From NCBI GenBank assembly GCA_000146465.1, contig CP001943.1: 64,000 bases of DNA. The stretch is one strand, 5' to 3'. Below, piece after piece: positions 29,997-61,074 of this stretch. A program made the position numbers and the translations under genes. The notes under the pieces were generated by a model. The model made no database searches and had not been told where the DNA came from. It worked only from the letters and a program-made list of their open reading frames with translations. Positions within the stretch are counted from its first letter, which is position 1. Every line of letters begins with the position of its first letter.

Positions 29997-30543
29997 TTAT
30001 TCAACTAGAATGCCCTCGAAGTTCTCAACAAACCACTTCTTGGCATCTTCTGCATAGACCCTCTGCTTATTTCCAACCTTTGATCTGCATCTTCTCCTTT
30101 TCGATACCCTATCTCCTGGTCTTGAAAGAACTACAAAGAAGTCCATTCCGAAGATTCCGATGTTTGGATCATACTTCAGACCAAGGTCAATGTGCTCTTC
30201 AATTCCAAATCCAAAGCATCCGTTATTGCTGAAGCAACTCTCCTTAAGTTCGTATTCCTTGACCTTCAATGCTGTGTTGAGAAGCTCGTAAGCCTTCTTC
30301 CCAGATACATTGACATGGACAGCAATCTTCTCGTTTCTCCTAATTCCGAAGTTCCTGATGGTCATTCTTGCCTTCGAGGCCACGGGCTTCTGTCCAGTCA
30401 ACTGCTCGAGAACCTTTGCTGCCCTGTCAAGCTTCGCTCCGCTTTCCCGTGCACAAATGTGGATGGAAAGTTTCTTAATGCTTATCTCTCTCATTGGGTT
30501 TATCTTAAATTAGCCCGTTTCAACTTACTTTCTTCGATGCCAT
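29997..30543 (-). CDS. RPL11: 60S ribosomal protein L11 (uL5), two exons
   Basis: Exon 2 (29997..30503) encodes [12 protein letters not shown]...[15 protein letters not shown]...[12 protein letters not shown]...[25 protein letters not shown]. Exon 1 is 30529..30543 (ATG GCA TCG AAG AAA). Splicing out a 25-nt intron gives [12 protein letters not shown]..., matching the uL5 N-terminus (..ENPMRELRIRKL). Confidence 0.75.
30504..30528 (-). other. Spliceosomal intron (25 nt) in RPL11
   Basis: Minus-strand sequence GTAAGTTGAAACGGGCTAATTTAAG: canonical GTAAGT 5' splice site, branch-like CTAAT close to the 3' AG. Confidence 0.65.
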
Positions 30544-30634
30544 GTTGGGGATCAAATTTTTTTCGCTCAAAACTATTACAATCAAAGACCTCCAGTTGTC
30601 TAGAAATCTCAACGGTATCCCCCAGGATCTCTAG

Positions 30635-30949
30635 CTATCTTTCCGAAGACTTGTCCATCTTGATAAACCATTTCTTGTCTAGAATCTCACGGATGTATAC
30701 AACATTTCCGTCTTTGGCCCCCACTCCAACTTCTCTCTTCGAGGCCACAGGCTTTAAAGAAAACATCTGACTTCCATTCTTCAAGTACCAAGACCCATCC
30801 TCAAACTTCACAAGCTTTGTGTTAGAACAGGATTCCTTGTGTCTAACCTGGAATGTTCGGACCTCTTCATCTCCATACTCATTAGGATCAAAAACAAGCC
30901 ATCCAGGCTTCTTCACCAAAAAATGCATAGATAGGGTCTTGACATGCAA
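30635..30949 (-). CDS. Hypothetical protein (104 aa)
   Basis: Clean ORF in an otherwise empty interval, beta-rich. No family call. The overlapping plus-strand ORF 30192..30770 is judged spurious. Confidence 0.3.
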   Translation of the reverse strand: MHVKTLSMHFLVKKPGWLVFDPNEYGDEEVRTFQVRHKESCSNTKLVKFEDGSWYLKNGSQMFSLKPVASKREVGVGAKDGNVVYIREILDKKWFIKMDKSSER

Positions 30950-31082
30950 ATTTAAATTCTGCCATTTGCAGGAGGCTAAAGAGGAAGGTTGTTTCTTGCT
31001 TGGTGGTACAGATGCATAGTACTTCCTGTTAGTTGCAAGATACTTCTAATTTACATACTGGTGAAATGCCCAACCCCATAAA

Positions 31083-33239
31083 ATGGAGCATCTACTGAAC
31101 GACATTCTGCAGAATCCCCAAGGGCCTTCTGTAAAGCATGTTGAAGAGCGCTTGGACGGAATTGACGGGCAACGTGAATTTGTGGAGCTTCTCAAGAGCG
31201 GAAACGGAATCGCATTTACTTACATGAAGACAAGATGTAAGGAGTGGACCGAGAACCCGAAACGCATTGAGATGATACACAGAATTCACGATGTTCTGTT
31301 CTCACTGATATTCACATCTTCCGAGCAGAACTTCGGGATCCTATGCTTCTTTTTCGAGACCTTGTATCTTTGCGGAAACGGATGGAGCAGCCTAGTTGAG
31401 GACTTATGTGCAAATCCAAATGGAAGAAGTGTAAGAGTTCTGAATCACATGTTCAACAAGTACAGGGTTTGCTCAAGAAGCAATGCCCTGTATGGCGAAA
31501 TAATAAGGAACATAGAGCTGTGCCAGGACATATTTAGGAAAGCATACTTCGAATCTCTTTCTGAAGACGAAAACATCCTTGGGATGTTCCACTCCCTGGT
31601 ATTTCAGGACATCCATCCCTTCTTTGAGAACAATGCAGATAGGTTTCTAGGATCATTTTGCAAGTTGCTACGTAAGCAAGTTCTCGAAAAGGATGTATGC
31701 GAGATCTTCAACTTGTTTGTAACAAAGTATCCCGAGTGTGTTGACATGACAAGGATTCTAGGAGTGGTGCTGACAACTATAACAGGATTCGATTATCTTA
31801 AGTATACTGTTCTGCTCAACATTGTGAAGAGAAAAAGCCATCCTGTCCTTTCTAAGTTCTCCGATGCGCTTTCAAATGCAGTGAAGATGGGCGCATTTGT
31901 GTCTGAGAACGAAATCATGGAAATGAATGAGGATGTGCTGCTGTATTCAAGAAATCTCCTAAAAGGTTACGATGTAAATAGAGGAATAATTATCGAGATG
32001 ATCGGGCATCTTCGGAAGGTTTTTGGAGAAGGATGGGGAAGCATGCTTATTGAAGGAACAGTGGCAACACCAATAGAGGAAGAGAGATTAATATTTTTGT
32101 GCATGGCTTTGGGGATCCGACTGGAAGAGGCTGTTAGGAAGTGCAGTGGGATAGTTCAGGATAGCAAGTCTATAGGATATCTGGGAGTTGTTTCCTTTCG
32201 ATATCTGCTGTCTATTGGCCACTACACTGTCATTGATCCGGGATACATTAACAGAGGAAACCCTGGATCATTTCTTGCAATGGTGTATCTAAGCAGATGT
32301 ATTGATAACAGTGGTGCTTTGGAGTCTCTTGAGTCCTATTCAACAAGATATGGAGAGGGGAACCCGGAAGCATGCAGGAAGATTGGAGGTCCTGAGAATT
32401 GCGCAAAGATCATGAGCCATCTAATGAAGTTTCTTAGAGATAACATCGAAGATGAATTTTCTTCACAATTGGTTCAGAAAGTGGTTAGAATCTGCCCTTC
32501 TTCTGTAAGTCCCGAGGTCGTGAGGTTTATCGATGAATTTGTATGGAAAAATGTCAGGAATATCAATTCACCTCAAGCTTATGGATATCTACTTGATGTG
32601 CAAGGACTTGTTTTTCTGAAGACAGGAGACAATACCTGGATTCTGAATCTTGTGCAGGTTGTGCTAAGCGAAGAGATATTCGAAATATATTCCTCTTCAC
32701 TATTTCTTCTTGCCATTGTTGTTCTGCACTCATCTGGAGACTTCTCACCTGTTGTAGAAATAATAAGACAGGAGAGCCTGTGGAAAACTAAGGAGCTTCT
32801 TCTAAGTATGGTTTGCCTTACAGTATCCCTTTTCAAGACGGGGAATTGCAGCAAGGAGCAGGTGGACTACATTGTTGAGTATCTGCTAGGAGTCAGCATT
32901 CATCATGCCTATGTTCTTCTCACCAACACAGTTGTTTCGGGAGATTATCTGAAGTGGATCAAGGGAGAAAACATAGAAGAGGAATTTGTGCTAGCTTGTG
33001 CACTGAAGAAAAGGGGCTTGATCAGCGAAGAGATGTACAAGGAGATATACACCAGGAGTCTTCAGTATTTTGAAAAGAATTTTGTGTCGAAAAGAAATGC
33101 CCGGCGGGTTCTGAGAGGGCTGGGATATGGGATGGAAAGCTTTGGGAGGAGTGAAGCTTACGGGGTAATGGAAAGAAACAAACACAGTATAGGCTATGAA
33201 AACATTCCTTTCAGTGTAGCCGTTGCCTTTGAGCTCTAA
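31083..33239 (+). CDS. Hypothetical protein (718 aa), helical-repeat (ARM/HEAT-like) appearance
   Basis: Long uninterrupted ORF rich in amphipathic helices. No diagnostic motif. Confidence 0.4.
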   Translation: MEHLLNDILQNPQGPSVKHVEERLDGIDGQREFVELLKSGNGIAFTYMKTRCKEWTENPKRIEMIHRIHDVLFSLIFTSSEQNFGILCFFFETLYLCGNGWSSLVEDLCANPNGRSVRVLNHMFNKYRVCSRSNALYGEIIRNIELCQDIFRKAYFESLSEDENILGMFHSLVFQDIHPFFENNADRFLGSFCKLLRKQVLEKDVCEIFNLFVTKYPECVDMTRILGVVLTTITGFDYLKYTVLLNIVKRKSHPVLSKFSDALSNAVKMGAFVSENEIMEMNEDVLLYSRNLLKGYDVNRGIIIEMIGHLRKVFGEGWGSMLIEGTVATPIEEERLIFLCMALGIRLEEAVRKCSGIVQDSKSIGYLGVVSFRYLLSIGHYTVIDPGYINRGNPGSFLAMVYLSRCIDNSGALESLESYSTRYGEGNPEACRKIGGPENCAKIMSHLMKFLRDNIEDEFSSQLVQKVVRICPSSVSPEVVRFIDEFVWKNVRNINSPQAYGYLLDVQGLVFLKTGDNTWILNLVQVVLSEEIFEIYSSSLFLLAIVVLHSSGDFSPVVEIIRQESLWKTKELLLSMVCLTVSLFKTGNCSKEQVDYIVEYLLGVSIHHAYVLLTNTVVSGDYLKWIKGENIEEEFVLACALKKRGLISEEMYKEIYTRSLQYFEKNFVSKRNARRVLRGLGYGMESFGRSEAYGVMERNKHSIGYENIPFSVAVAFEL

Positions 33240-33367
33240 AGTCCTGTTTTCCTTTTGGCATGTTCTTTTATTTTATGGCAATAAACCAGATTTGATTCTC
33301 TAGATATATTTTTTCCACCCACCATCTGAGATGAATTATTTTTCTGAGTAGCAAGCCCTTATTTACG

Positions 33368-34546
33368 ATGTTTCAGCCAGGGATTGAGGCATACCTGGAT
33401 GCCATAAAACAGCAGTACGATACGGTTATGGCAGAAAATAGGTCTCTGCGGAAGGAGAACATTCGTCTTGTTGAAGCAAATGGGCAATATGCAAGGAAAA
33501 TCCAGTACTACACGAGTATTTTAAACAGACAGAAGCATATGTCTCTGGAGACCGAGGGGTCGTTTATAAGACCTCCAAAGTATTTGAAGAGAGGAAGCGA
33601 TTGGAGTGTTGATGGAGATAAGCTGTGCATAGTGAGCGTTCGGGACAAGATAATGGTGGGAGGAAAGATAACGAATGCTGTTATAAGCAAGTGCGGGAAG
33701 TTTGTAGCATTTGGATGTGGATACAAAGTATTTATTGTAATGGAGAAGACTATTTGGTTTTTGGACACCTCTTCCGAGAAGATGGAGAGATACGAAGAAG
33801 GAATGTTTGAAGGAGAGACACAGGAATACAGGATATGCCCCATGGACTTCACTTGTGATTCTCTTTATCTGTATGCGGCAGATGGGAAAGGAGCAGTGAG
33901 GATATGGAGTCTGAAGAGTAAGGCTCAAGAAGGATTACTGAGGCCTTGTGATCCTGTTGCACTCAAGATAACCAACAACTTGGTGTTTACGATTGAATGG
34001 GACAAGACCATGAATGTGTATGATTCAAACAACAAGGTTCTTACTCTAAGCTCTGAAGAGGAGTTTAGTGGGCCCATGGCAGTAAGTCCAGACGGGAGCT
34101 TCGTATATGCAGTTGTGGGAAGAACCAAGATTCTTGTTTTTGACATCAAAACAGAGATGGTTCATCTAGCAAACACCAACGAGGATCGAATTCTGGCGAT
34201 AGCAACCTCTCCAGAACACGCGATAATGTCGATAGGAGGCCATGGACGAAATGCCTATCTTTACAGGATAAAGAAGGAAAAGCCCTTACCCAGGGTGCAG
34301 GATTCTATCGATCAGAGAGGCACTGTCTTCTCTCTAGGATTCATAGGAAACCATTTGCTTGTAGGACAGCCCGAAGGTGTTATGATCTGGGATCTGTCGG
34401 AGAAAAGAAGCATGAGGATACAACTCCAAGAGTCAAATGTGATTGGAATATCCACATGCAAGGACTCTTTTGCCACCGTAGACAACAATGGAGTCTTACG
34501 TGTATGGAGATATTACAATTCTGTGGAATGGGATAATAGCTCTTGA
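33368..34546 (+). CDS. Tup1-like WD40 transcriptional co-repressor
   Basis: N-terminal coiled coil IEAYLDAIKQQYDTVMAENRSLRKEN resembles the Tup1 N-domain (LNELLDAIRQEFLQVSQEANTYRLQN). Several WD repeats follow (VAVSPDGSFVYAV..., IWDL, LRVW). Confidence 0.5.
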   Translation: MFQPGIEAYLDAIKQQYDTVMAENRSLRKENIRLVEANGQYARKIQYYTSILNRQKHMSLETEGSFIRPPKYLKRGSDWSVDGDKLCIVSVRDKIMVGGKITNAVISKCGKFVAFGCGYKVFIVMEKTIWFLDTSSEKMERYEEGMFEGETQEYRICPMDFTCDSLYLYAADGKGAVRIWSLKSKAQEGLLRPCDPVALKITNNLVFTIEWDKTMNVYDSNNKVLTLSSEEEFSGPMAVSPDGSFVYAVVGRTKILVFDIKTEMVHLANTNEDRILAIATSPEHAIMSIGGHGRNAYLYRIKKEKPLPRVQDSIDQRGTVFSLGFIGNHLLVGQPEGVMIWDLSEKRSMRIQLQESNVIGISTCKDSFATVDNNGVLRVWRYYNSVEWDNSS

Positions 34547-34664
34547 CGAGCATCCAATTTAAAATGCAATCCCCTAGAGACTTTATTATTAAAATGTTTT
34601 TTGGCCTATTGGCACTTCTATGCTATCCGTAGAGAAGATAATTGGCAAAATGTCTTCTTTATTG

Positions 34665-36113
34665 TTAGAGCCTGGAGATGTATTCCTTTATATCCGAAAC
34701 CCAAGCGTCTCTTTCCTTTTCACAGGTGGTGTATAACTCCACTCCCTCTCCAGATCTTTCAAGACAGAAGCCGACTTGGCCAATGGGCAAAACATTACAG
34801 TTACTAAGAAGAAAGATCTTGTAGACTCTGCTCTTCTCATAACATATAAGAGCCTTTCCAACAAACTTAAAAAGGTATGCCTTCCATCCATCCTTGTCCA
34901 TCAAGAGATACGAAGATCTGAGCAGATGGGTACTGGAAATGTCTGAGAGAATGAAAGGCTGTAGCTGCTTATCGGTCATCTCCGAGTTTAGCGCGATTTC
35001 TATTGCTCTATCTCTTGCTCTTCTATCTTGTGGAGACATTGCGTTTGCTAGTGTTGCACATCGGATACCGGGGAAAAGTGTAGAAATATCCTTTATGGTC
35101 TTGCATATTATCCATTTTATGTCCGACTCAACTGTGATGTAGTACTTGGTTGTTTCGGCTGAACCTTCGTAACATAGTACAGTGTTAGAGATCCTGATTT
35201 GAGGATAGATTGTTAGTTTGCGGCCAGGAGCATAAAGATTTGAAGCCATTTGGGAGTTCCGAGTTTCTGACCAGCTGTGAGAAGCCCCCTTTAGATTACC
35301 TTCGGGTTTTTCGATCGTATTCTCTGGCTTGGACATGGACTTTACATACATCACATCGATAGGAGCAAAGGTTGGAGACTTCCCTGTTCTAGTATACAAA
35401 AAGCTGGGTCCTTGATACGAGGTTTTGCTCGACAAGCTAAGAGAACTTGCGTTTGATAAGGGATTACTAAATACAGATTTGGAGACAGAGAGGTCTTCTT
35501 CTTGGGCTTCCTTTTTGCCAAAAGGACTTGGCGAAGTTCGGTTTCTTCTATTTCCAAAGCTGCCGGAATTGGATGGAGCTTCTCTATTGAAAATAGAGCT
35601 GCTCGCTATTGATCTTACATAGCCCACTTTGGATCCTCGATTGATGGAATCCTCAACGCTTCCCTTATTCATACCATACGAGCTGAAGTCTATAGACGAT
35701 TTTTTGTAAAGATCCATTCCCACCATCGATCCCTTGGATATGTCTTTATGGGCCGGGCTCCTATTCATAGCTCCAGAAGAGTTTACTTTCCATGGAATCA
35801 CTCCTCCAATAAATCCATCCCTCATCTTTGTACTATTTACATCACCAGAATTGTTTTTTGGAATGCCATCTGCAGCTCCATTCTCATTTGAAAAGTCCTT
35901 GCTCTTGCCAAAGTAGTTTGCAGGAGATTCTAGCTTAACATTTCTGTTGAATACAAATCCACTTCCAACACAAGCCCTTGCCTTAAACTCCTCATTGATC
36001 CTTCTTAGCTTCTCATCCATCGATCCCATCGACAACCCTCTTGCATCCCTAAACTTTCCTTCCGGTTCTTCTGCAGCAGGAGACAGGTATGAGTTCAAAG
36101 AGTCTTTTCCCAT
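34665..36113 (-). CDS. Ser-rich low-complexity protein with C-terminal PH-like domain
   Basis: About 300 aa Ser/Gly/Asn-rich, then LLMDKDGWKAYLFKFVGKALICYEKSRVYKIFLLSNCNV...ERDAWVSDIKEYI, a typical PH-domain layout with a C-terminal helix containing Trp. Confidence 0.4.
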   Translation of the reverse strand: MGKDSLNSYLSPAAEEPEGKFRDARGLSMGSMDEKLRRINEEFKARACVGSGFVFNRNVKLESPANYFGKSKDFSNENGAADGIPKNNSGDVNSTKMRDGFIGGVIPWKVNSSGAMNRSPAHKDISKGSMVGMDLYKKSSIDFSSYGMNKGSVEDSINRGSKVGYVRSIASSSIFNREAPSNSGSFGNRRNRTSPSPFGKKEAQEEDLSVSKSVFSNPLSNASSLSLSSKTSYQGPSFLYTRTGKSPTFAPIDVMYVKSMSKPENTIEKPEGNLKGASHSWSETRNSQMASNLYAPGRKLTIYPQIRISNTVLCYEGSAETTKYYITVESDIKWIICKTIKDISTLFPGIRCATLANAMSPQDRRARDRAIEIALNSEMTDKQLQPFILSDISSTHLLRSSYLLMDKDGWKAYLFKFVGKALICYEKSRVYKIFLLSNCNVLPIGQVGFCLERSGEGVELYTTCEKERDAWVSDIKEYISRL

Positions 36114-36198
36114 GTTTAGGGCTCAAGTAAATATCAATATTCAAAAGCCTTTAATAAAACCTTGAAAATTCACGCGCGCATAAGTAAAACAAAATTCT

Positions 36199-38397: not shown

Positions 38398-38519
38398 TTC
38401 TCAGGGGCAACTTTGTCAACATTTTGATGTACCTTGATTTTGATTCATTCTCAGATAATAAAAGAATGATTAGGGTTCATCATAAGATTGCCTGAGACCA
38501 ATGAGATTGTTACAGTATG

Positions 38520-38527
38520 TATATAAA
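38520..38527 (+). promoter_or_regulatory. TATA-like box (TATATAAA) about 20 nt upstream of the DEAD-box helicase ATG
   Basis: TATATAAACCAGAGATTTTTTTATCCC-ATG. The ORF-track N-terminus MYINQRFFYP is just this promoter read in frame. Confidence 0.4.
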
Positions 38528-38546
38528 CCAGAGATTTTTTTATCCC

Positions 38547-40055: not shown

Positions 40056-40133
40056 TGTTTCTTTTGGTTAATGGGATAATAAATACTGGTTGGCAATTTA
40101 TGTTAGGAAAACTGGCCTTGTGTTTTCCAATCT

Positions 40134-40988: not shown

Positions 40989-41028
40989 ATGGAGTTGTTG
41001 ATATTTAATGAACATAAGCTCAGTCCGG

Positions 41029-41451: not shown

Positions 41452-41481
41452 CTGTGTGGGTGATAGTAGAGTTGAAATGGG

Positions 41482-47349: not shown

Positions 47350-47658
<309 letters not shown>

Positions 47659-47887
47659 CTAACCAGAATTCTTCGGCACCAGACGAAAATGAAGAGATCT
47701 GTAGCCGTCTTAAACATCTGGACTTCAACAGACCCCTTGTGCCGGCCATACACATCGGAGCTCCATGGATACTCCTCTCTGCCTCCATACAATGCACCCA
47801 CACCTTCCTGCCTGTTACAAAGTACAGTTAAGAGACAAAAAATTTTACCCTCAAATGGTGCTAGGAAAGGTAAAAAAGATCCCGGCC

Positions 47888-48475
47888 ATGGCTCCAAAGC
47901 TGACGAAGGAACAGAAGATGGAGAGAGAGCTTTTGATAAAAAAGAAGATAAGCAAGCTGGCCAATGCAATCAGAATTCCCCCGGCCATCAATCAGTTCAA
48001 AACCTTCCTATCGGAGGATGATACTAAAAAGTTCGTTGATCTGTTCATGAAGTACAGACCGGAAAATAAGAAAGAGAAGATAGCTAGGCTAAGTTCCGAA
48101 GACCCGAAGAAGGGCCCAAAGCCCATTCTTGTTAAGTTTGGTCTGAAGCACGTGACAAGTCTTATCGAAAGCAAAAAGGCAAAGCTTGTTCTTATCTCCG
48201 CATCTGTCGATCCCATTGAGGTTGTGATCTTCCTTCCAACGCTGTGCAGAAAGATGGGTGTGTCCTATGCAATTGTCGAAAACTCCACCATTCTTGGAAG
48301 GCTCGTCAACCTGAAGTCCACATCATGTGTCTGTCTGTGCGACGCAAGGCCAGAAGATGAGGCTGCTTTCAAGGAGATACAAGGAATTGCAAATGCAATC
48401 TTCCTCGACAACTATGAAACCCATCTGAGAACCTGGGGAGGAGGCCCAAAGAAGCAAACAAGTGAAGAGCAATGA
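47888..48475 (+). CDS. RPL7A: 60S ribosomal protein L7a (eL8)
   Basis: [23 protein letters not shown] and ...[42 protein letters not shown]...WGG match eL8 ([36 protein letters not shown]). Start placed at the MAPK ATG (47888, GATCCCGGCC-ATG). The in-frame ATG at 47855 is an alternative. Confidence 0.7.
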   Translation: [195 protein letters not shown]

Positions 48476-48513
48476 AATAAAACATTTCTTTATTCAGGAA
48501 CTCATGCCAGCCC

Positions 48514-49053: not shown

Positions 49054-49135
49054 GGTTCACTATTTCTCTTTCCTAATCCTTACACAATAAACAAACCATA
49101 GAATGATAGAATAATTTATTATTCCTGCTCCTGCC

Positions 49136-49521
49136 TCACACCCCATAAATCTTGAAGTTCCCCTCGTATCCGTACCTCTTTATCATCTCCATCGTCACAT
49201 TATCAACCTCGACACTATCGACATCAAGAATCGACTCCTTTGGAATCACATTCTCCTTCCTTTCTCTCTCTTCTTCGTGGCTCTTGATGTAGACCTTGTT
49301 GTACGTTCCCTTCAAAATCTTCTTGTAAAGGGACGTGAGATATCCTGCAATCTCATTCTTCAGCTTCTTCGACTGCACAACAGCCACGTCTTGCACCACA
49401 AGCAGATTATGGTCAAACGTGTTGTCAAGCCTCTGGAAATACTTTTCTGCAATCGTTCGCGCTGCCCTCTTGACTATCTTGTTCCTAACACAGCCCTAAA
49501 ATTAAAGCTTCCACCTACCAT
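49136..49521 (-). CDS. RPS17: 40S ribosomal protein S17 (eS17), two exons
   Basis: Exon 2 (49136..49495) encodes [63 protein letters not shown]...[17 protein letters not shown], which aligns with eS17 ([64 protein letters not shown]). Exon 1 is the ATG alone (49519..49521), followed by a 23-nt intron. The ORF track shows only a GTG-initiated fragment. Confidence 0.75.
49496..49518 (-). other. Spliceosomal intron (23 nt) in RPS17, directly after the ATG
   Basis: Minus-strand GTAGGTGGAAGCTTTAATTTTAG: a GT...AG intron with a TTAAT branch-like element adjacent to the AG. An in-frame stop lies directly upstream of exon 2 unless it is spliced. Confidence 0.65.
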
Positions 49522-49570
49522 TCTTGGGGTGAAAATTTTTTCTGCACAAATCTCCCTGCAAAACACTTCA

Positions 49571-50254: not shown

Positions 50255-50333
50255 AGAGGGCTTGCCTCATCAAGCATTAACTTGGTCTATTCCAAAATAT
50301 TTATGAAATGATTGATGGTACCTATCAAGTTTA

Positions 50334-50768
50334 TTAACTCCTCCCAAAGCAGCTACTTAAGACACTACTGGCGGCGGTAACAAGATCACCAAGAGCACCA
50401 CAATCACAACTGCAACTACACATTCTTTCGGTGGTCTCTGTTCCGTTCTCATTAGTAGTGCTTGTAGAAGCAACGATAACTTCGGCACTCAAACCACCAT
50501 CGGTGCCATCAGACGGGCCAGGCTGTTCTGTAACAGGATCTTGGCCACCAGACCCGCTATCAGTAGGTTGATCTCCGTCTTGAACGGGGCCATGAGACGA
50601 ACCATCCTGTGGGCTTTGACCTGAATCATTTCCTCCATCATGTTGTTCTTCATTATCTGTAAATCCAGGATTACAACGACCAAGTGATCCATCTTCATTA
50701 CTTCCATAAACTGGTACCTGAAAAATTAGTAGCATTATTGAGATTGACAGAATGATACCCTTCATTGC
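50334..50768 (-). CDS. Secreted acidic Gly/Ser/Asp-rich protein with C-terminal cysteine cluster (candidate spore-wall/polar-tube or other extracellular protein)
   Basis: N-terminal signal-peptide-like MKGIILSISIMLLIFQVPVYG. About 90 aa of low-complexity D/G/S/Q/P-rich sequence. C-terminal CSCSCDCG...SCF. The listed ORF start (50864) would overlap RPL9, so I placed the start at the internal ATG. Confidence 0.45.
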   Translation of the reverse strand, partial: AMKGIILSISIMLLIFQVPVYGSNEDGSLGRCNPGFTDNEEQHDGGNDSGQSPQDGSSHGPVQDGDQPTDSGSGGQDPVTEQPGPSDGTDGGLSAEVIVASTSTTNENGTETTERMCSCSCDCGALGDLVTAASSVLSSCFGRS

Positions 50769-50817
50769 AAATTTTTGGAGACGACTTCTTAAATACCAAT
50801 TAAAAATTTTATCCCTA

Positions 50818-51369
50818 ATGAAGATTTTGGTCACAAGAACAGTAAAGATCCCAGAGGGCTGCATTGTGAAGCAGGAGGGGAAAGTCTTTACATTCGAGGG
50901 CCCGAAGGGAAGGATAGTCGAGGACTGTACTCGACATCCGCTAACATTTGATATCTATGAGGGGAATGTCCGAATCCGACTCTGGAATGGAAAGAGAAAG
51001 GCTGCAGCTCTTGCAATAACGGTCGAGTCTCTTTTGAAAAATGCAGTCAAGGCCGTCACAGTTGGATTTGCATACACTCTGAAAGCAGCATACAACCATT
51101 TTTCTATAAACATGGAGGTCAAGGAAGATGGAAAAGTCCTCCTTGTGAAGAACTTTCTTGGAGAGAAGAACATCAAGGTGTTTAGGATGCGTGGAGTGGC
51201 AAGGGTTAGACTGGACGAAAGGAAGGATACAATAGTGATTGAGGGCCCATCTCTGCCGGATGTTTCCCAGAGTGCAGGGACAATCTCCAACGAATGCAAG
51301 GCTAAGAACCGAGACAGCAGAGTGTTCCTTGACGGAATCTTTGTTACAGAGAGAGGCATCATGGCTTGA
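50818..51369 (+). CDS. RPL9: 60S ribosomal protein L9 (uL6)
   Basis: MKILVTRTVKIPEGC...FEGPKGRI..., KAVTVGFAYTLKAAYNHFSINMEV..., NFLGEKNIKVFRMR and KNRDSRVFLDGIFVTERG align with uL6 (NFLGEKYIRRVRMR, KNKDIRKFLDGIYVSEKG). Start placed at the internal ATG after a CCC motif. Confidence 0.75.
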   Translation: MKILVTRTVKIPEGCIVKQEGKVFTFEGPKGRIVEDCTRHPLTFDIYEGNVRIRLWNGKRKAAALAITVESLLKNAVKAVTVGFAYTLKAAYNHFSINMEVKEDGKVLLVKNFLGEKNIKVFRMRGVARVRLDERKDTIVIEGPSLPDVSQSAGTISNECKAKNRDSRVFLDGIFVTERGIMA

Positions 51370-51448
51370 GTAAAGGTCGTACTTTATTTTATATTTAGTT
51401 TTTGAAATGCTATTTTTTCTGAGCCTATTCTTTAAGATCTCAACCCTC

Positions 51449-51916
51449 TCAGTTGGCCTGGGCTTCTTTTTTCTTGGCCTTTGTGGTGTGGCTTTCGAAG
51501 GAAACTTCACTTTCAAGCAGGGTTGCGTGTCTTTCGATGTATTCCAGATCGCTTTCCTTGTTTGCCTCCTGTCCTGTCAGGATTCTGTCTTTGATGAAGA
51601 AGTCTTCTCTTCTCTTCCTTATATCAAGTATCTTTGGAATGCTGGAAAGCGTCTTTTGCACCTCTTTGCGGTCGTATATGCGCGGCTCGTTGAGGCGGTG
51701 CTCGAACTCCAGGATGGGGTCGTTACAAAGCTCCTTGTTGGCCATCTTTCTCGATATCTTTGTCCATTTGACTTTCCTTGGATTGACACGTCTCTCAAAG
51801 AGTTTTCTGCACTTTGATCTGCAGAATCTAAAGACTTTTGCATCGTTCCGGACATAGACTGTTCCATGGCCTTGGTATATATTTGACGAGCAGAACCAGC
51901 ACTTTTCAATCCTCAT
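51449..51916 (-). CDS. RLP24: Ribosome biogenesis protein RLP24 (eL24-like)
   Basis: MRIEKCWFCSSNIYQGHGTVYVRNDAKVFRFCRSKCRKLFERRVNPRKVKWTKISRK nearly matches the RLP24 N-terminus ([53 protein letters not shown]). Confidence 0.65.
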   Translation of the reverse strand: MRIEKCWFCSSNIYQGHGTVYVRNDAKVFRFCRSKCRKLFERRVNPRKVKWTKISRKMANKELCNDPILEFEHRLNEPRIYDRKEVQKTLSSIPKILDIRKRREDFFIKDRILTGQEANKESDLEYIERHATLLESEVSFESHTTKAKKKEAQAN

Positions 51917-51968
51917 TTTACCCCTCCATCCATCTGGAATTTCTATACAGTTGTCCCAAATATTTTAA

Positions 51969-53297: not shown

Positions 53298-53491
53298 CTG
53301 CCCTGAATTGTGGATATTTTTTATTGAATGACTGAATAGGATTGTAAAGCCATAAAGGCTGTTCAAAGGTGTGTGTGGGAGAGCATCAGGGGTTTTCCAC
53401 GGATTAGCAACCCTTCTGAATGAATAGATACTTCTGCCGGGAGATTTTGCTTCTTGAAGAGATAACAACAGAGCTCTTGGGATCCAAGGAA

Positions 53492-53767
53492 ATGGATGAG
53501 GAGACAACCCACAAGGCCAAGCTGCTGCTAACAATAAAGGACAAGCTCAATGAGAAGATGATGGAGATGGAGGAGTACTATATGAAGAGAATAGAGTTCT
53601 ACAGGGAAAATGATGGGACAAGGGCAAAGGAATTGGAGAAACAGACAGAAGAATGCAACGAGAAGTATCTAGGGCTTCTGATACGAGCAAAGGAGCTCGG
53701 ACATCAGATAGAAAGACTTGAGATAAAGGGCCTTCGAAATAAATCTTGTGCCGGAAATGAGTTGTGA
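53492..53767 (+). CDS. Hypothetical small coiled-coil protein (about 91 aa)
   Basis: ORF MDEETTHKAKLLLTIKDKLNEKMMEMEEYYMKRIEF... between two minus-strand genes. Weak support. Confidence 0.2.
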   Translation: MDEETTHKAKLLLTIKDKLNEKMMEMEEYYMKRIEFYRENDGTRAKELEKQTEECNEKYLGLLIRAKELGHQIERLEIKGLRNKSCAGNEL

Positions 53768-53984
53768 GAGGCTATCTTGCAATTTTCCTATATTGGAATA
53801 AGGGGAAGAGCGAAGCAGGGTAAGAGAGTCCTTCGGCGCAGAAGTGAGTAAAACAAGTGATTTTGAGCAGAAAACTTTGATTCTGCCTGTCTACGGTTCT
53901 TTGGGGGAAGCCAAGAGAAGGGTCTCCTTTTACCCTTTTGCACCCTGTGATAAAATATAAAAAGAAGAGGGAAAGAGGGGTTGA

Positions 53985-55151
53985 ATGGCAGGCGAGAGGG
54001 CCGAATACGGCGGGATTGCCGGTGGACAAGAATTAATTTATCATTTCCAAGAAGACAGCGATGATCTTGGGGTTGAGAAGGAGTATGAGGAGAACGAGCC
54101 CAACTCTCTTAGGCTCCGAAATTTTGTAGAGGACGAGCTGTATCAGTCTGACGGACAAATGCAGTATAGAGGGGAGGACGAAATGAGGCTTCGGTATGGG
54201 CGCAAGAAGAAGGAGAAGAGAAAGAAGAAGAAGAATGATGAAAACAAAAGGCCATCGAATAGGAAGATAGTGAATCTTCCTGCGTCTCCTCCTTATGTAC
54301 GGTTTGTAGACGGAGAGGAAAGACTATGCTTCAAGTATGTAACGAAGGTCAGCGAGTCGGCACGTGATGCGATGCCCAAGACAGATCTGGAGGATAATGA
54401 GTTCTGTGTAAGATTTGATCTTGACAGCGTGGACATCAGCAAATTGAACGAAAAGTTCAAAGCAGACAACTGTGTGTATCCCAGGGCAAATCTCCCCTAT
54501 GAGATGTATACTGGAAACAGATGGGGATTTGAGACGGAATGCAACCGACTGGCATGGCAGTTTGTTTCGTTGAATCCTGTTCTTCTGTATGGAAAGAAGG
54601 GACTTATCCAGAGAGCCGTCGACTCTTACAGAACAATCAACAAGCAGAGCAGAAATAAGAGGATTGTCAAGGAAGATCGGTTTCCTAGCGACATTGAGAA
54701 GAGGAAGCATGTTTCTGGAGCACCCTCGACGATCACGATTCAATGGACCAACAGAGGGATTTTGAAAAAATGTAAAATCCAAGTTAACATCGAAAACATA
54801 AACTATGGGAAGATCGACGATGAATTCAAGTCGAGGTTTTCTGTATTTATGGACGATTTTGATGACAAGTCGTTTGGGAAGAGCAAGTGGGAAAGCCACA
54901 ACGTAGATAACGAGCTTGCAGTAAAGATAGCTTTTCTCAATGTTGAGAACACGTCGTTTTGGAATGCCATCAAGGCGCTTGATAAGACAACTGTGCTCAA
55001 GAAGGCAATTGAAGCATATAAACAAAAGAGAGATGAGTATGCAAGCTCCGATGATGACACCGAGATGTCTGATGTTATTGCAAGCGCGCTTGGGAGCAGT
55101 CTGGGAAACTCAAAGAGCTGTAATGTTGAGAATTTTTATTTTGATAATTAG
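53985..55151 (+). CDS. Hypothetical protein (388 aa) with poly-basic segment (RKKKEKRKKKKNDENKR, NLS-like)
   Basis: Clean ORF. Acidic N- and C-termini flank a basic patch. No family assignment. Confidence 0.4.
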   Translation: MAGERAEYGGIAGGQELIYHFQEDSDDLGVEKEYEENEPNSLRLRNFVEDELYQSDGQMQYRGEDEMRLRYGRKKKEKRKKKKNDENKRPSNRKIVNLPASPPYVRFVDGEERLCFKYVTKVSESARDAMPKTDLEDNEFCVRFDLDSVDISKLNEKFKADNCVYPRANLPYEMYTGNRWGFETECNRLAWQFVSLNPVLLYGKKGLIQRAVDSYRTINKQSRNKRIVKEDRFPSDIEKRKHVSGAPSTITIQWTNRGILKKCKIQVNIENINYGKIDDEFKSRFSVFMDDFDDKSFGKSKWESHNVDNELAVKIAFLNVENTSFWNAIKALDKTTVLKKAIEAYKQKRDEYASSDDDTEMSDVIASALGSSLGNSKSCNVENFYFDN

Positions 55152-55180
55152 TCATGAATTTGTCTTGAATAAATGATATT

Positions 55181-56767
55181 GTGGAGAATGTGCATTCAAT
55201 TGTTATGAAACTGTGTTTTAAGATGTTTATAGTTTTTGGTATAAAGGCTTTTCTTGCTGTAAACAATACTATGCTACTTGTGTATCTTCTGGGCTGCCTT
55301 GCCGAGATAGTGGAGCAATGCAAGCCTATCAACGAGGGATATGTACTCAGTAAGTACTTTGCTCAGTGGTGCCCGGCGTGCCAAAACATGGGGCCGCTTA
55401 TAGAGGAGATCAGTAACAAGATAGACAGGCACGAAGCAAATCTAAAAATAAGAAGTGTTGACTGTGATGAATGTTCTTGTCCAAATGTCAAAAGTTACCC
55501 GACGCTGGAGATGTCTAAGGATGGAGAGACTCTTGGAAAGCTGGAGGGTCCTCAGGATTATGACGAAATAATTGAGTTTATTGTAAACCATACTGGAATC
55601 GAGAGAAGCGTGTTTGAAGGACATGCCGCACAGAAGGAGGCCGAGGTTAGGAGGTTGAATAAGAATGACTTCCTCAGTGGGTTTGATGGTCCTCATATTG
55701 TTCTGTTCTATTCCAGAGAGGACGACAAATACAGAGAAATATTTAAGGAGATTGCAAAGATCTATAATGGAAAGCTGAATGTCGGGGAGATCGACAGTGC
55801 AGAGTCTGCAGAGTTTGTCAATAGATATGACATCAGGTCTTATCCCTCGATATCTGGAATCTATAACGGATTGGTTGTTCCTTTCATAGAGAAAGGGAAA
55901 GAGCCCAGCATGCCCAACTTGATTGAGTTCTGCGACAAGCTCATCGAACAGTCGTTCGCCAATCTGACCCTTGCCAAGTTTGGAGAGCTAGCATCGAAGC
56001 TTGAGCCTGGAGAGCCTATCTATGTGGTCTTCCATAAGAACCTTGCGCTGGCCAATGCATACTTCCAGAGGATGGCCCACATGTACAAGTTCCGGGCCAG
56101 TATATACAGGTCAGATGACCAGGCTCTATTTGAAAAGGCATCCATATTCCCTAAGGAGCTAGGCTCTGGCTCAGACACAACCTCCAGCCCCAACCATGAA
56201 GATGTTGTCATTCTCTCTGTGTATAAGAACGGGGTCTTTTACAGATACTCAGATACCTTTGGAGATGAGACAAAGATAACAGATTGGATATTCCACACCC
56301 ACTACAGGTATTTAACAAGAATCGACAATCACAACTTCTACTCCATATTCCATGGCCTCAAGCCTGTAATGATACTTCTGACAAGAGGAGAGGAGCTAGT
56401 AAACAAGATGAACGAGTTTAGTGCAGACAGACACCTAGGGGTTCCATACACAGACATGATATTTGCTACCATGGAGATCGACGAGTATCCTCTCTTTGTC
56501 CCGACACTTCTCCCAAGACTTTCCACTCCTGCATTGATTGTGTTTGAACCCTGGAGAAATCTATTCCGCCACAAAAAGGCCAAGCTCACAGAAGACAACT
56601 TCATTTCTACAGCAATGGATACCTACACTCTGTACCAAAACAACCGCCTTCCGCTTTACCCGCCAAAATCACACAATGTTTTGAAGTACTGTTTGCTCGG
56701 TGGGCTAGTTCTCGGAGTCGGATTGTACTACTCCTCCAAGGCTGGCTTTGCAAAGAAGAACAAATAA
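55181..56767 (+). CDS. Protein disulfide isomerase-like thioredoxin-domain protein with C-terminal TM anchor
   Basis: Thioredoxin active site WCPACQ. N-terminal hydrophobic signal segment. Further thioredoxin-like folds. C-terminal TM (LLGGLVLGVGLYYS) with a KKNK tail. Confidence 0.6.
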   Translation: MENVHSIVMKLCFKMFIVFGIKAFLAVNNTMLLVYLLGCLAEIVEQCKPINEGYVLSKYFAQWCPACQNMGPLIEEISNKIDRHEANLKIRSVDCDECSCPNVKSYPTLEMSKDGETLGKLEGPQDYDEIIEFIVNHTGIERSVFEGHAAQKEAEVRRLNKNDFLSGFDGPHIVLFYSREDDKYREIFKEIAKIYNGKLNVGEIDSAESAEFVNRYDIRSYPSISGIYNGLVVPFIEKGKEPSMPNLIEFCDKLIEQSFANLTLAKFGELASKLEPGEPIYVVFHKNLALANAYFQRMAHMYKFRASIYRSDDQALFEKASIFPKELGSGSDTTSSPNHEDVVILSVYKNGVFYRYSDTFGDETKITDWIFHTHYRYLTRIDNHNFYSIFHGLKPVMILLTRGEELVNKMNEFSADRHLGVPYTDMIFATMEIDEYPLFVPTLLPRLSTPALIVFEPWRNLFRHKKAKLTEDNFISTAMDTYTLYQNNRLPLYPPKSHNVLKYCLLGGLVLGVGLYYSSKAGFAKKNK

Positions 56768-56826
56768 AACCTCTTTGACATATATTATTTTGAGAGAAAA
56801 ACAAAACGGAGAAGCCTCGTCCATCG

Positions 56827-58095
56827 ATGAAGTTGATTTACATTCTAGGAGATCTGCTTATCTCGTATTGGAAAGACATCCTAAAGGTAGTCATAGAAAC
56901 ACTCGTAATTTACCTAGTGGTTCGATTTAGATATCGCTCCAATAAGGATGTTATCATTTTTCCACAGAATGTAATTGATAAACTTGTGGCTGAGTTTGAT
57001 CCCGACGACTTGGTGAAAGACGTCCCCAGCGATGTGATGCTGCCCAGCGTGTACAAGGAAGGGATGGTTGATCTGGCAAACTTCGATGTGTTTGGGTTGG
57101 CAATGGAAAACAAGAAAGAGATTGTCGAGGCCATAAGAAAATATGGAGTTGGGACTTGTGGGCCTCGGGGATTCTATGGGACTCTGGACATTCACCTGGA
57201 CCTTGAGAGGACCATTAGCAGGGAGCTTGGTGCAGAGGCTTCCATTGTGTATCCAAACAGCTTCATAGCTGTCAACAGTATCATTGCGTGCTTCTGCAAG
57301 CAGCAGGACATTGTGTTTTACCACGAGGACTGTAACGAGGCTATTCTTAGGGGGATCGGGCTGTCGAAGTCGAAGAATATTGAATTTGCAAGCATCTCGG
57401 ACCTGGAGATAAAGCTGGAGTATTTCACGAGGCCGAAGGTAAGGAACTTTGTGATTATTGAAGGCCTTTCAAAAAACACAGGAAAGATTGTAGACATTAA
57501 AAAGATATTGGAACTCAGAGACAAATACAAGTTCAGGATTATCTTGGATGAGTCCTATGCCATTCCCCTGCTCAACAAAAGAGGAGTCTGCGGGGCAAAT
57601 GGAGTAAGTATTAAGGAGATCGACATTACCATTGGATCTCTGTCCGGGGGACTCTGTTGTGGTGGAGCATTCTCCTTAGGGACTTATCACGCTGTAGATT
57701 ACCAGAAGCTGTCTGGATCTTCCTACTGTTTCTCGGCGTCTCTGCCAGGAGCCTTAGCTAAGGCTGCAATCCTGAACATTCAGAGGGAGTTCGACTATGA
57801 GGGATTGAGAAACAGAGTGGAGTTGTTTCATGCAACTTTTGAGTCCAAGACATATGAGATTATGTCTTCTCCTCTATCACCCATAGTGATTGTTGTAAAG
57901 AAGAGAGAAGTAAGGAGGCCAATGTCTAGGGAGGCACTGCTAAAGGAAGTCCTAGATATAAGAAGTGAGCTTTTAAAGAATGGAATTATTGTTGGATTCA
58001 ACCACAATCCATATCCTTCCCTAAGAATTTGTCTGAAGGCCAAGATCCCAAGGGACGATGTTACAAGGCTCGCAGTCATGTTGAATAAATGGTAA
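56827..58095 (+). CDS. LCB1: Serine palmitoyltransferase subunit LCB1-like (class II aminotransferase fold)
   Basis: N-terminal TM, then GTCGPRGFYGTLDIHLDLERTISRELGAEASIVY and IIEGLSKNTGKIVDIKKILELRDKYKFRIILDESYAIP, paralleling LCB1 (GSCGPRGFYGT.DVHL.LE..IA.F.G...AILY; ...VVEGLY.N.G.I..LP.L..LK.KYK.R..LDES.SFG). Confidence 0.6.
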   Translation: MKLIYILGDLLISYWKDILKVVIETLVIYLVVRFRYRSNKDVIIFPQNVIDKLVAEFDPDDLVKDVPSDVMLPSVYKEGMVDLANFDVFGLAMENKKEIVEAIRKYGVGTCGPRGFYGTLDIHLDLERTISRELGAEASIVYPNSFIAVNSIIACFCKQQDIVFYHEDCNEAILRGIGLSKSKNIEFASISDLEIKLEYFTRPKVRNFVIIEGLSKNTGKIVDIKKILELRDKYKFRIILDESYAIPLLNKRGVCGANGVSIKEIDITIGSLSGGLCCGGAFSLGTYHAVDYQKLSGSSYCFSASLPGALAKAAILNIQREFDYEGLRNRVELFHATFESKTYEIMSSPLSPIVIVVKKREVRRPMSREALLKEVLDIRSELLKNGIIVGFNHNPYPSLRICLKAKIPRDDVTRLAVMLNKW

Positions 58096-58132
58096 CCAAA
58101 ATCTGTTTTATTTCTTGGAACATACATCTGTG

Positions 58133-58375
58133 TCATACCATGGCCTTCTTGGCAGGGAACTTTATAAGATCCACAATCTTCAACATCTTCGATGCTAGAG
58201 AAGACATCTCTGTGTCTAACAGAATTTCCATCAGCCCCGTGAAAATAGTCATCTGGGAGTGGTCGTACTGGCCTAAGATGTCATAGAGACACCTATCAGC
58301 TGCCTCCGGAACCTCAGAAAGGTTGCTGCTGAATATCAAGGAGTTCAGATGGACCAGACTGCTATGCATCCACAA
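58133..58375 (-). CDS. Possible small protein (80 aa) in the 330-nt gap between LCB1 and the next gene
   Basis: The only ORF in this gap. No motif. Confidence 0.2.
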   Translation of the reverse strand: MWMHSSLVHLNSLIFSSNLSEVPEAADRCLYDILGQYDHSQMTIFTGLMEILLDTEMSSLASKMLKIVDLIKFPAKKAMV

Positions 58376-58423
58376 GGGGTGGTGAGAGTAGAATAAAGAA
58401 ATATTTGCAGTATGAATCCTTAA

Positions 58424-60313
58424 ATGGGAATCTGCAGGAACAAGGACTTTGTAATAGTCTCTGAGAAAAACGAAATTCTAATGATGGATATTATGACACT
58501 CTCTGTGTTCCACAGAAGAGAATGTGGAGTTAACTCACCTGTGGCATGCAGCAACGAGTATGTATTTATTGGAGATGGATGTGGGGTTATGGCACTGGGT
58601 CTTCTCGATCTGAAGGAAAGGGAGGTATGCAGAATGAAAACACCTGTAACTGCCATTTTCCACCTGGATGGGTTTATATATTGTGGAAGTGAAGAGGGAA
58701 CTATCTATGTTTATGGAGGAGGGAGAAAAGAAGATGGAGATGTGGGTGAGGGAAAGGATTCCATGGATTTTCTAGGGTCTGAGCTTTCAAACGAGATGTT
58801 TTCTATGGATGACGGGGGATTTAAGCTTGTGAAAACCATGAAACATCCTGGGCCGGTGACTCAAATTTGTAGTGATGGGACAGAAGTGTTTGTGGCGGAT
58901 ATGAGGAACAAAGTAACGGTCTATCCATCCAAGAAAACCTATGACATCAAAAACCCTAAGCTTGCTTACAAGAATTACATATTTGCAAGCGAAAGGAACA
59001 TGCTTTATTGCAAAACGCGAAATGCATTTGCAACCTACCTGACAACGGAGAAACCGATAAGTGGCTACACCTTCAGCATGAATGGAGGAGTTTTATTTGC
59101 ACAGTGTAGAGATACCGTGGATGTTGTTGACTTCAATACCAAGAAAGTTGTAAAGAAGGTGGAGGTTGCAGGGAAGTTTGTATATGATGATGTTAGAGAC
59201 AGGTTGGTGTGGTTTGATGGAAAAAGACTTGTAGCTGTTGAGAATGTTCTCGAGAGGGAATATAAGGGGATGGATGGGATAATGTTTAGAGAGGATGGAC
59301 TTGTCGAGAAGAAGATCAAGATTGATGAAGAAATGGATGAGAATATTGTAGAGAAATACAGAGAAGATGGATTGTGGAAGAAGCCTCCGAAAAGGAAGTA
59401 TTTTAGAGCATCGTCGGAGGGAGAGAATGGATTAGGAGAAGGAGGGGAAGAGAAAAAAGAAGTGGTTGATCCTGACGAATGGGTGGAAGAAGCGAAGACA
59501 AAAGGAAAGGATAGTCTTGGGAGATCCAAGTTAGAAGCAGAACCTGGGAGTCTTCTATGCTATAATACCGAGGGCTATATGACTTGTATTGGGGATGAAG
59601 AAAGAGGTAGAATAGAAATCAACTACCATGATGTTTCTCGAAGAAGAATCGAGGTGGATGGTATCCAGGGATGTACTATAGGAAGTTTTTGCCAAGATAA
59701 CATTATAGTAGGAAATGGGAAGAAGATCTTTTATATCGGGCCATCCTCTCGATGGGAGAAAGAAGTTGAGGCAAGTATTGTTTCCGTGTCTGAGAAGATG
59801 GTGGTTTCCTTCTCTGGAGAGCTTCGGGTCTTTGGCCTTGACGGGTCCGAGATGCTTAACTGTCTTATTCCAGATGTAAGTGCCATATGTTGCCGTTCCG
59901 ATATCATTGTGGTGTTTTCACGAGAGATAATTGTGATTGATCTGTTTAAATCAACCGAAAGATTCTTTCTTCCATCTCCAGTGGACTTTGCTTGCTTCGA
60001 TGAAGGTGAAAAGGTTTTTTACAGAATCAACGGGAAAATGTACCAGCTTTATAAGGGACTTTCTGTTAGGGTGTGTGAAGCCCCGAAACAACCGCTAGCT
60101 GTGTTCAAGGGGAATGTGATTTCCTTAGGGCCTTCCAGAAGGTTGTTTCCATCTCCACATGTTGAATACACCCAATTCGATGTATTTGATCCATGCAGGT
60201 CCAAGGAGCCGATGGGTTCTACTGAAGATGAAGAAGTCCTCTGCAGTGAAGATTATGAGAACAAGAATGTAGAGGTGAGTAAGAGCAAGAGGTACAACCC
60301 CCTTAAGAAATAA
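58424..60313 (+). CDS. WD40/beta-propeller protein, tentatively Ctf4/AND-1-like
   Basis: N-terminal WD-like repeats. The later segment SIVSVSEKMVVSFSGELRVFGLDGSEMLNCLIPDVSAICCRSDIIVVF resembles the Ctf4 SepB-domain pattern (..SIVAIALGDSWVAVATS..LRLFTIGGVQ..). Acidic insert. The start may be an internal ATG. Confidence 0.35.
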   Translation: MGICRNKDFVIVSEKNEILMMDIMTLSVFHRRECGVNSPVACSNEYVFIGDGCGVMALGLLDLKEREVCRMKTPVTAIFHLDGFIYCGSEEGTIYVYGGGRKEDGDVGEGKDSMDFLGSELSNEMFSMDDGGFKLVKTMKHPGPVTQICSDGTEVFVADMRNKVTVYPSKKTYDIKNPKLAYKNYIFASERNMLYCKTRNAFATYLTTEKPISGYTFSMNGGVLFAQCRDTVDVVDFNTKKVVKKVEVAGKFVYDDVRDRLVWFDGKRLVAVENVLEREYKGMDGIMFREDGLVEKKIKIDEEMDENIVEKYREDGLWKKPPKRKYFRASSEGENGLGEGGEEKKEVVDPDEWVEEAKTKGKDSLGRSKLEAEPGSLLCYNTEGYMTCIGDEERGRIEINYHDVSRRRIEVDGIQGCTIGSFCQDNIIVGNGKKIFYIGPSSRWEKEVEASIVSVSEKMVVSFSGELRVFGLDGSEMLNCLIPDVSAICCRSDIIVVFSREIIVIDLFKSTERFFLPSPVDFACFDEGEKVFYRINGKMYQLYKGLSVRVCEAPKQPLAVFKGNVISLGPSRRLFPSPHVEYTQFDVFDPCRSKEPMGSTEDEEVLCSEDYENKNVEVSKSKRYNPLKK

Positions 60314-60383
60314 ATGGCTTTAAATTCTCTATGAACCAGGATGCAAGGTCTGTATGTGGTGTTGGTTATTGGAGGACTTATAA

Positions 60384-60455
60384 GGTGGTATGGTCTAGTG
60401 GTATGACGCTTGCTTAGGGTGCAAGAGGTCTTGGGTTCGAGTCCCAATACCGCCC
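60384..60455 (+). tRNA. tRNA-Pro (anticodon AGG)
   Basis: GGTGGTA-TG-GTCT-AGTGGTAT-GACG-CTTGC-TTAGGGT-GCAAG-AGGTC-TTGGG-TTCGAGT-CCCAA-TACCGCC-C. 7-bp acceptor with one U-G, 5-bp anticodon stem, U33, anticodon AGG. Followed by TTTT. Confidence 0.8.
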
Positions 60456-60520
60456 TTTTGCTTGTGCTTCCAAACACAGGGGAAAGAATTCTTCTGTTCT
60501 CTCTAAAATATCCAATTAAT

Positions 60521-61074
60521 TTATTTTCGAGTCTCCTTGGACTTCTTGTTAAACTTCTCGGTATAGAACTTCAGCTCGCTTCCCTGCAGAACATGTCCCA
60601 GAGCTGCTCCTGCCTGCCCAGGTCTTGAGGTGATGATTCCATATAGATGTCCTTTTTCAAAATTCTCATGCAACTCAGGATCAGTGCTGCTTCCTATCGT
60701 CTCGATATCCTCTTTGAATGGTTCTGCCTCAATCTTAACAACAGAGCTCTTCGTTAGAGTATTGGTACGAACAAGATCGTTGGAGCTGGGATGGTACACA
60801 ACCTGCAGAAGCTTGGATGCTCTAGTCTTCCCAGTGCTGGGGAATCGAAAGTACCCAACATCCAGCCTCAAAGCCTTATATTTCTTGTTTCCACCTCTCA
60901 CTCTAACAGGAATCACCCTCCTTTCCCCTATCTTTGTTGCACTCGGCTGAGATCCTGCCCTGTTGTTGCGCTTCTTGCGGCTGATTACAGCCTTTGCTCC
61001 CGTCTTCCTACGCTTGTGGTCTCCTCGATGGTTTATTCCTAAAATTAATCTTCCTTCGGAGATCACTTACCCAT
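60521..61074 (-). CDS. RPS8: 40S ribosomal protein S8 (eS8), two exons
   Basis: Exon 1 is 61071..61074 (ATGG) and exon 2 is 60521..61038. Removing the 32-nt intron gives M-GINHRGDHKRRKTGAKAV...RVRGGNKKYKALRLDVGYF...ASRPGQAGAALGHVLQGSELKFY, matching eS8 (MGISRDNWHKRRKTGGKR...RVRGGNKKYRALRLDVGNF...[23 protein letters not shown]). The ORF-track MISEGRLIL is intron read-through. Confidence 0.8.
61039..61070 (-). other. Spliceosomal intron (32 nt) in RPS8, phase 1 after ATG-G
   Basis: Minus-strand GTAAGTGATCTCCGAAGGAAGATTAATTTTAG. It shares GTAAGT and the (T)TAATTTTAG end with the RPS17 and RPL11 introns. Confidence 0.7.

Follow-up and report, generated by a model that had tools for sequence, protein, structure and literature searches.

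The window analyzed here, a 64,000-nucleotide (nt) stretch of contig CP001943.1 (GenBank assembly GCA_000146465.1), carries seven ribosomal-protein genes: uL5, eL8, eS17, uL6, eL24, eS8, and eL33. Three of the seven, uL5 (RPL11), eS17 (RPS17), and eS8 (RPS8), all on the minus strand, were the subject of an original prediction that a very short spliceosomal intron has to be removed from each of them to reach the start codon, with the introns placed at 30504..30528 (RPL11), 49496..49518 (RPS17), and 61039..61070 (RPS8). These coordinates and lengths all hold, and every one of them is exact to the base. The structures of the three genes, with the evidence for each feature, are as follows (PDB entry 7QEP is the ribosome of Encephalitozoon cuniculi, and the ADM accessions are GenBank protein records).

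30529..30543, minus strand: uL5 (RPL11) exon 1, ATG plus 4 codons (MASKK); the ATG is at 30543..30541 and the sequence is ATGGCATCGAAGAAA, 5 codons.
30504..30528, minus strand: uL5 intron, 25 nt, GTAAGTTGAAACGGGCTAATTTAAG; splice reading and motif scan, with a 24-nt E. cuniculi intron at the equal position.
29997..30503, minus strand: uL5 exon 2, INPMRE... to TAA; stop at 29999..29997; Pfam Ribosomal_L5 and L5_C, 7QEP chain M1, and ADM11055.2.
49519..49521, minus strand: eS17 exon 1, the bare ATG; splice reading, with a promoter signal upstream.
49496..49518, minus strand: eS17 intron, 23 nt, GTAGGTGGAAGCTTTAATTTTAG; splice reading and motif scan, with orthologous introns of 23-24 nt.
49136..49495, minus strand: eS17 exon 2, GCVRNK... 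to TGA; Pfam Ribosomal_S17e, 7QEP chain C7, and ADM11071.1.
61071..61074, minus strand: eS8 exon 1, ATG plus G; the ATG is at 61074..61072 and the G at 61071, and the intron splits codon 2.
61039..61070, minus strand: eS8 intron, 32 nt, GTAAGTGATCTCCGAAGGAAGATTAATTTTAG; splice reading and motif scan, with orthologous introns of 31-33 nt.
60521..61038, minus strand: eS8 exon 2, ..GINHRGDHKRRKTG... to TAA; Pfam Ribosomal_S8e, 7QEP chain S8, and ADM11081.1.

The intron follows codon 1 in eS17, interrupts codon 2 in eS8, and follows codon 5 in uL5; the first exons, in this order, measure 3, 4, and 15 nt. Splicing yields proteins of 173 amino acids (aa) for uL5, 120 aa for eS17, and 173 aa for eS8, which begin with MASKK|INPMRE (uL5), M followed by GCVRNK... 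(eS17), and MGINHRGDHKRRKTG (eS8). If the introns are retained, the frames that open at the ATG stop after 7 (uL5), 15 (eS17), and 3 (eS8, MGK*) codons. The true starts of all three genes are absent from a mechanical list of open reading frames (ORFs), which offers a 165-aa ATG ORF for uL5, a 181-aa GTG ORF for eS8 (MISEGRLIL...), and an 87-aa GTG ORF for eS17. The claim that unspliced frames either hit a stop or acquire junk N termini is correct, with early stops in all three genes and an eS8 N terminus, MISEGRLIL, that lacks a counterpart in homologs.

Alignment of the spliced products to Pfam profiles and to 7QEP chains gives full-length proteins for eS17, eS8, and uL5. Residues 1-112 of eS17 align with positions 1-112 of the Ribosomal_S17e profile, and the matches to Ribosomal_S8e (eS8) and to Ribosomal_L5 and L5_C (uL5) start at residues 6 and 7, respectively. 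In the E. cuniculi ribosome, eS17 (residues 1-120) aligns end to end and at equal length with chain C7 (E = 1e-72), eS8 (residues 1-173) does so with chain S8 (E = 1e-91), and residues 1-173 of uL5 align with residues 1-173 of chain M1, again at equal length (E = 2e-110). The spliced N termini are identical to those of the 7QEP chains or differ from them by one residue, and the spliced proteins also align closely with ribosomal chains from other microsporidia. The restoration of conserved N termini is therefore borne out, although the pattern proposed for eS8, MGI.RD.HKRRKTG, is not literally fitted by MGINHRGDHKRRKTG.

All three introns are bounded by GT...AG. The predicted 5′ splice sites, GTAAGT (uL5 and eS8) and GTAGGT (eS17), are present; the predicted common 3′ motif, (C/T)TAATTT(T)AG, does not extend to uL5, whose intron ends in CTAATTTAAG, while those of eS17 and eS8 both end in TTAATTTTAG. 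When both strands of the window were scanned with the pattern GTA[AG]GT-N(4-60)-[CT]TAATTT[N]AG, there were three matches, all of them these introns, against 0.06 expected from first-order Markov simulations, a comparison that measures the specificity of the pattern and is not an independent test, because the pattern was derived from the same three sites. Transcriptome sequencing (RNA-seq) of E. cuniculi found every annotated intron to be spliced, with strict motifs and lengths of 22-76 nt (Grisdale 2013, PMC3629993), a range that includes the 25, 23, and 32 nt observed here; a length near 25 nt is typical of the short class. A second Encephalitozoon intestinalis assembly (GCA_051312795.1), which is 99.99% identical to the window, has the same gene structure. 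In its public annotation, which covers almost the whole window, gene ranges equal 3 × (aa + 1) in every case except these three genes, where the range exceeds that value by 25 nt (uL5, 547 nt for 173 aa), 23 nt (eS17), and 32 nt (eS8).

Comparative evidence comes from orthologous loci, which were fetched from E. cuniculi, Encephalitozoon hellem, Encephalitozoon romaleae, Ordospora pajunii, and Nosema bombycis and aligned at their 5′ ends. E. romaleae has a 24-nt intron directly after the ATG of eS17, and the intron at this place is 23 nt long in E. cuniculi and in E. hellem. After its ATGG, eS8 carries an intron of 33 nt in E. romaleae, 32 nt in O. pajunii, and 31 nt in E. cuniculi; uL5 of E. 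cuniculi has one of 24 nt after codon 5. Where lengths differ between species, by 1 nt, the difference lies wholly inside the proposed intron and leaves the adjoining exons in frame. Such changes would not be tolerated in coding sequence, and the intervals evolve as non-coding DNA. The GTARGT and TAAYTTTAG motifs are kept across the orthologs, and the middle of the intron is variable. In N. bombycis, the eS8 gene is colinear and intron-less (ATGGGAATAAA / ATGGGAATAAATCAC..., encoding MGINHRGEHK...); it starts with MGINHRGEHKRKKTG, and its sequence equals the predicted splice junction, ATGG|GAATAAACCA.

A further line of evidence marks the start codons themselves. In Encephalitozoon, 5′ untranslated regions (UTRs) measure only a few nt, and just before the ATG of ribosomal-protein genes there is an AAATTT-like signal with CCC or GGG behind it (PMC2803860). 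Signals that match Table 1 of that study precede the ATGs of the three intron-bearing genes.

30554..30562, minus strand: AAATTT-like ribosomal-protein promoter signal before uL5, AAAAAATTT plus CCCC.
49533..49541, minus strand: AAATTT-like ribosomal-protein promoter signal before eS17, AAAAAATTTT plus CCCC.
61083..61091, minus strand: AAATTT-like ribosomal-protein promoter signal before eS8, AAAAAATTT plus CCC.

Each of the seven ribosomal-protein genes of the window has such an AAATTT-like element, with CCC behind it (GGG in eL24), within about 20 nt of its ATG, the other sites being 47837..47845 (plus strand) and positions upstream of the ATGs at 50818 (plus), 51916 (minus), and 62253 (minus). 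The exact string AAAAAATTT has four matches in the window, and all four precede the starts of ribosomal-protein genes. The element corresponds to the promoter signal already known for such genes in microsporidia, and it marks true start codons (PMC2803860). In the same study, L11 is flagged in Table 1 as a mispredicted start and three additional introns were found via promoter signals, which is consistent with the ".2" versions of uL5 protein records.

The spliced proteins match exactly, in sequence, the GenBank records of E. intestinalis ATCC 50506: ADM11055.2 (uL5, a revised model, as its version shows), ADM11071.1 (eS17), and ADM11081.1 (eS8). On the strength of this exact protein identity and of the 99.99% DNA identity to a public assembly, the window is E. 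intestinalis DNA, in agreement with the genus named in the original prediction, and its G+C content of about 42% is unremarkable for the species. It is syntenic with E. cuniculi chromosome II, where the same seven ribosomal-protein genes are listed in the corresponding locus (PMC2803860); the three intron-bearing genes are positional orthologs of E. cuniculi genes there, eS8 being the ortholog of ECU02_0880. The original prediction had also warned that gene models in this region are wrong unless the introns are recognized. The warning is justified for the unspliced 165-aa uL5 model, which persists at least in KAL7346234.1 (E. intestinalis, a later annotation) and AGE95612.1 (E. cuniculi), but the reference GenBank annotation already contains all three spliced models.

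Taken together, these observations indicate that the window almost certainly contains three genuine short start-proximal spliceosomal introns of the Encephalitozoon ribosomal-protein type. We propose the following route to their removal. Transcription would begin from the AAATTT and CCC signal and leave a 5′ UTR of a few nt, which, by extension from E. cuniculi data on rapid amplification of cDNA ends (RACE), would place the 5′ splice site very near the cap. The U1 small nuclear RNA (snRNA) of Encephalitozoon, including that of E. intestinalis, has the 5′-end sequence ACUUACC (PMC5499648), which is predicted to pair over 7 nt with GGUAAGU of eS8 and over 6 nt with GUAAGU of uL5; the predicted pairing with GGUAGGU of eS17 includes one G-U wobble. 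The TAAT of YTAATTT(N)AG would serve as the U2 branch site, about 6-7 nt from the 3′ AG. Loss of 23-32 nt would then fuse the ATG mini-exon in frame to the body of the gene and, as sequence comparison shows, restore the conserved N terminus. Transcripts that keep the intron run into a stop after 3-15 codons, and, extrapolating from the E. cuniculi literature, a large share of transcripts is probably non-productive.

Several considerations weigh against this account. Splicing at these exact junctions in E. intestinalis is deduced from homology and comparison, and both the branch-point role of TAAT and the pairings with U1 and U2 snRNAs are putative assignments that follow from consensus reasoning. 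In E. cuniculi RNA-seq, most short introns are spliced in <50% of transcripts and often in <20%, and for 81% of junctions the spliced form makes up less than half of the transcripts (PMC3629993). The statement that the introns are removed may consequently apply only to a minority of transcripts.

Inefficient removal could also be read as the purpose of the introns. In that case, the introns would be real but mainly regulatory, ribosomal-protein dosage would be governed by their inefficient or controlled removal, a parallel to the autoregulation of yeast ribosomal-protein genes, and unspliced uL5 mRNA might give a truncated 165-aa protein by re-initiation. Splicing in E. cuniculi is indeed low and time dependent (PMC3629993), and the introns are kept at conserved positions in genomes stripped of almost all other introns. 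In unspliced uL5, moreover, the 7-codon upstream ORF ends with TGA at 30522..30520, and an internal ATG at 30494, 26 nt later, opens the 165-aa uL5 frame, an arrangement that would permit re-initiation on transcripts that keep the intron. We nevertheless regard a mainly regulatory role as unlikely: this analysis yielded no direct evidence of regulation, the literature tends to attribute low splicing to a reduced spliceosome that works inefficiently, and the 5′ bias in intron position is explained by intron loss via reverse transcription (PMC6349667). The unconserved intron middles likewise give no sign of a binding element. Somewhat less probable still is the specific proposal that the retained mini-introns near the cap are functional, with inefficient splicing acting as a ribosomal-protein dosage valve and with truncated 165-aa uL5 produced by re-initiation after the 7-codon upstream ORF.

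A second possibility, which we consider very improbable, is that there is no splicing and that translation starts downstream, at ATG 30494 in uL5 (165 aa), GTG 61066 in eS8 (181 aa), and GTG 49399 in eS17 (87 aa), the upstream ATG and GT...AG being coincidental. These are the ORFs that a mechanical caller reports, two public uL5 proteins are of the 165-aa form (KAL7346234.1 and AGE95612.1), the 181-aa eS8 ORF is found on a Logan contig, and one predicted E. cuniculi ribosomal-protein intron proved unspliced by 5′ RACE (PMC2803860). However, residues 2-33 of eS17 and 2-15 of eS8 show conservation throughout eukaryotes, and their codons stand in frame ahead of any start codon; eS8 has zero internal methionines, and the N terminus that the GTG start would give it, MISEGRLIL, is unmatched in homologs. 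The AAATTT and CCC signal adjoins the upstream ATGs and not the downstream starts, interspecies 1-nt length differences fall only within the proposed introns, and the intron-less Nosema eS8 begins with MGINHRGEHKRKKTG. The remaining explanation, that the interruptions stem from errors in sequencing or assembly or mark decaying pseudogenes, has a negligible probability, since nothing beyond the broken reading frames themselves speaks for it, while the same structure recurs in the independent 99.99%-identical E. intestinalis assembly and in four other species, the genes encode essential, single-copy ribosomal proteins, and the proteins as spliced correspond to those entered in the PDB with the E. 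cuniculi ribosome structure 7QEP.

The Logan contig with the 181-aa form of eS8 (protein P0008), which starts at GTG and retains the intron, comes from a public read assembly and is only 1041 nt long. If this contig is RNA-derived, it would be direct evidence for retention of the eS8 intron in E. intestinalis.

The class to which we assign the three introns is already known. Short Encephalitozoon introns have reportedly been described since 2001, first with the E. cuniculi genome (Katinka 2001) and later by Lee et al. (2010, Mol Biol Evol), the primary catalogue of introns in that species. The class is also described in PMC6349667, and the view of the original prediction that introns of this type, served by a reduced spliceosome, are established knowledge agrees with the literature. 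The short 5′-biased ribosomal-protein introns of E. cuniculi share with those of the window their GT-AG ends, a 5′ splice site of the GTAAGT type, a branch motif of the TAAT type lying a few nt before the AG, a position in or just past the first codons, and a premature stop upon retention; the differences are limited to the species, to 1 nt in length, and to a small number of substitutions in the intron middle, which is variable. The long introns of the poly(A)-binding protein and S23 genes (Whelan et al. 2018, PMC6349667) are likewise retained in reduced microsporidian genomes and have GT-AG ends and U2-type branch sites. In contrast to the three introns described here, they are about 3 times longer (76 nt in E. 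cuniculi), are about 80% spliced, and combine a conserved internal stem-loop with an extended branch point, whereas no conserved internal element is present in the three. In Saccharomyces cerevisiae, too, introns are enriched in ribosomal-protein genes, show 5′ bias, and adhere to a strict consensus at the splice sites and branch, features common in intron-poor genomes. The yeast introns differ in being far longer, roughly 50-1000 nt (PMC3629993), and in their UACUAAC branch sequence, greater branch-to-AG distance, and efficient splicing (about 80%).

The four other ribosomal-protein genes of the window, eL8, uL6, eL24, and eL33, were checked for a needed intron and none was found; their public ranges are colinear, and their starts follow the promoter signal. 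For eL8 (RPL7A; 47855..48475, plus strand), the model in one E. cuniculi assembly (GCA_001078035.1), 192 aa from a range of 621 nt, implies that the 42 nt immediately behind the ATG are an intron; in other assemblies the gene is colinear and encodes 206 aa. The implied intron is probably a modeling error, because the interval is in-frame coding sequence conserved in four species and has no GTAAGT or TAATTT motifs. The predicted intron that 5′ RACE found to be unspliced in E. cuniculi belongs to a ribosomal-protein gene named "rib" (PMC2803860), which, judging from the neighboring genes, probably corresponds to eL8/L7A. For uL6 (RPL9; 50752..51369, plus strand), the first-ATG ORF has 205 aa (start at 50752), as opposed to 183 aa (start at 50818) in the public E. 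intestinalis model. A signal, AAAAATTTT-ATCCC, stands immediately before 50818, the E. cuniculi assemblies are split between 183 and 204 aa, and the L9 start is flagged as mispredicted in PMC2803860.

A looser pattern, GTANGT...TAAT N1-6 AG, has seven matches in the window, including the three real introns, with 5.1 expected by chance, and the other matches were rejected. The match at 15369..15401 (plus strand) lies in a post-stop intergenic spacer. That at 17414..17440 (plus strand; GTAAGTATACTGGAAACCATAATAAAG, 27 nt) lies in the spacer of convergent genes, 3′ of the stop of a plus-strand kinase gene and with no upstream ATG, and is most likely due to chance. The matches at 54335..54401 (plus strand, 67 nt) and 35289..35349 (minus strand, 61 nt) are each within a long intact ORF whose frame their removal would break. 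An Rfam scan of the window returned no snRNA and only three transfer RNA (tRNA) genes, Thr-CGT at 19506..19578 (plus strand), Ser-CGA at 18967..19048 (minus strand), and Pro-AGG at 60384..60455 (plus strand). The tRNA-Pro gene is on the strand opposite to eS8, 66 nt past its stop codon, which reflects tight gene packing.

To the biology of the reduced spliceosome, the three introns add nothing new, and their main value is a practical one. ORF callers of the prokaryotic kind give wrong models for these genes, and some public Encephalitozoon annotations still miss such introns. The locus is a clean demonstration that the starts of microsporidian genes can be fixed jointly from a strict intron motif, the AAATTT and CCC signal, and intron-less orthologs.

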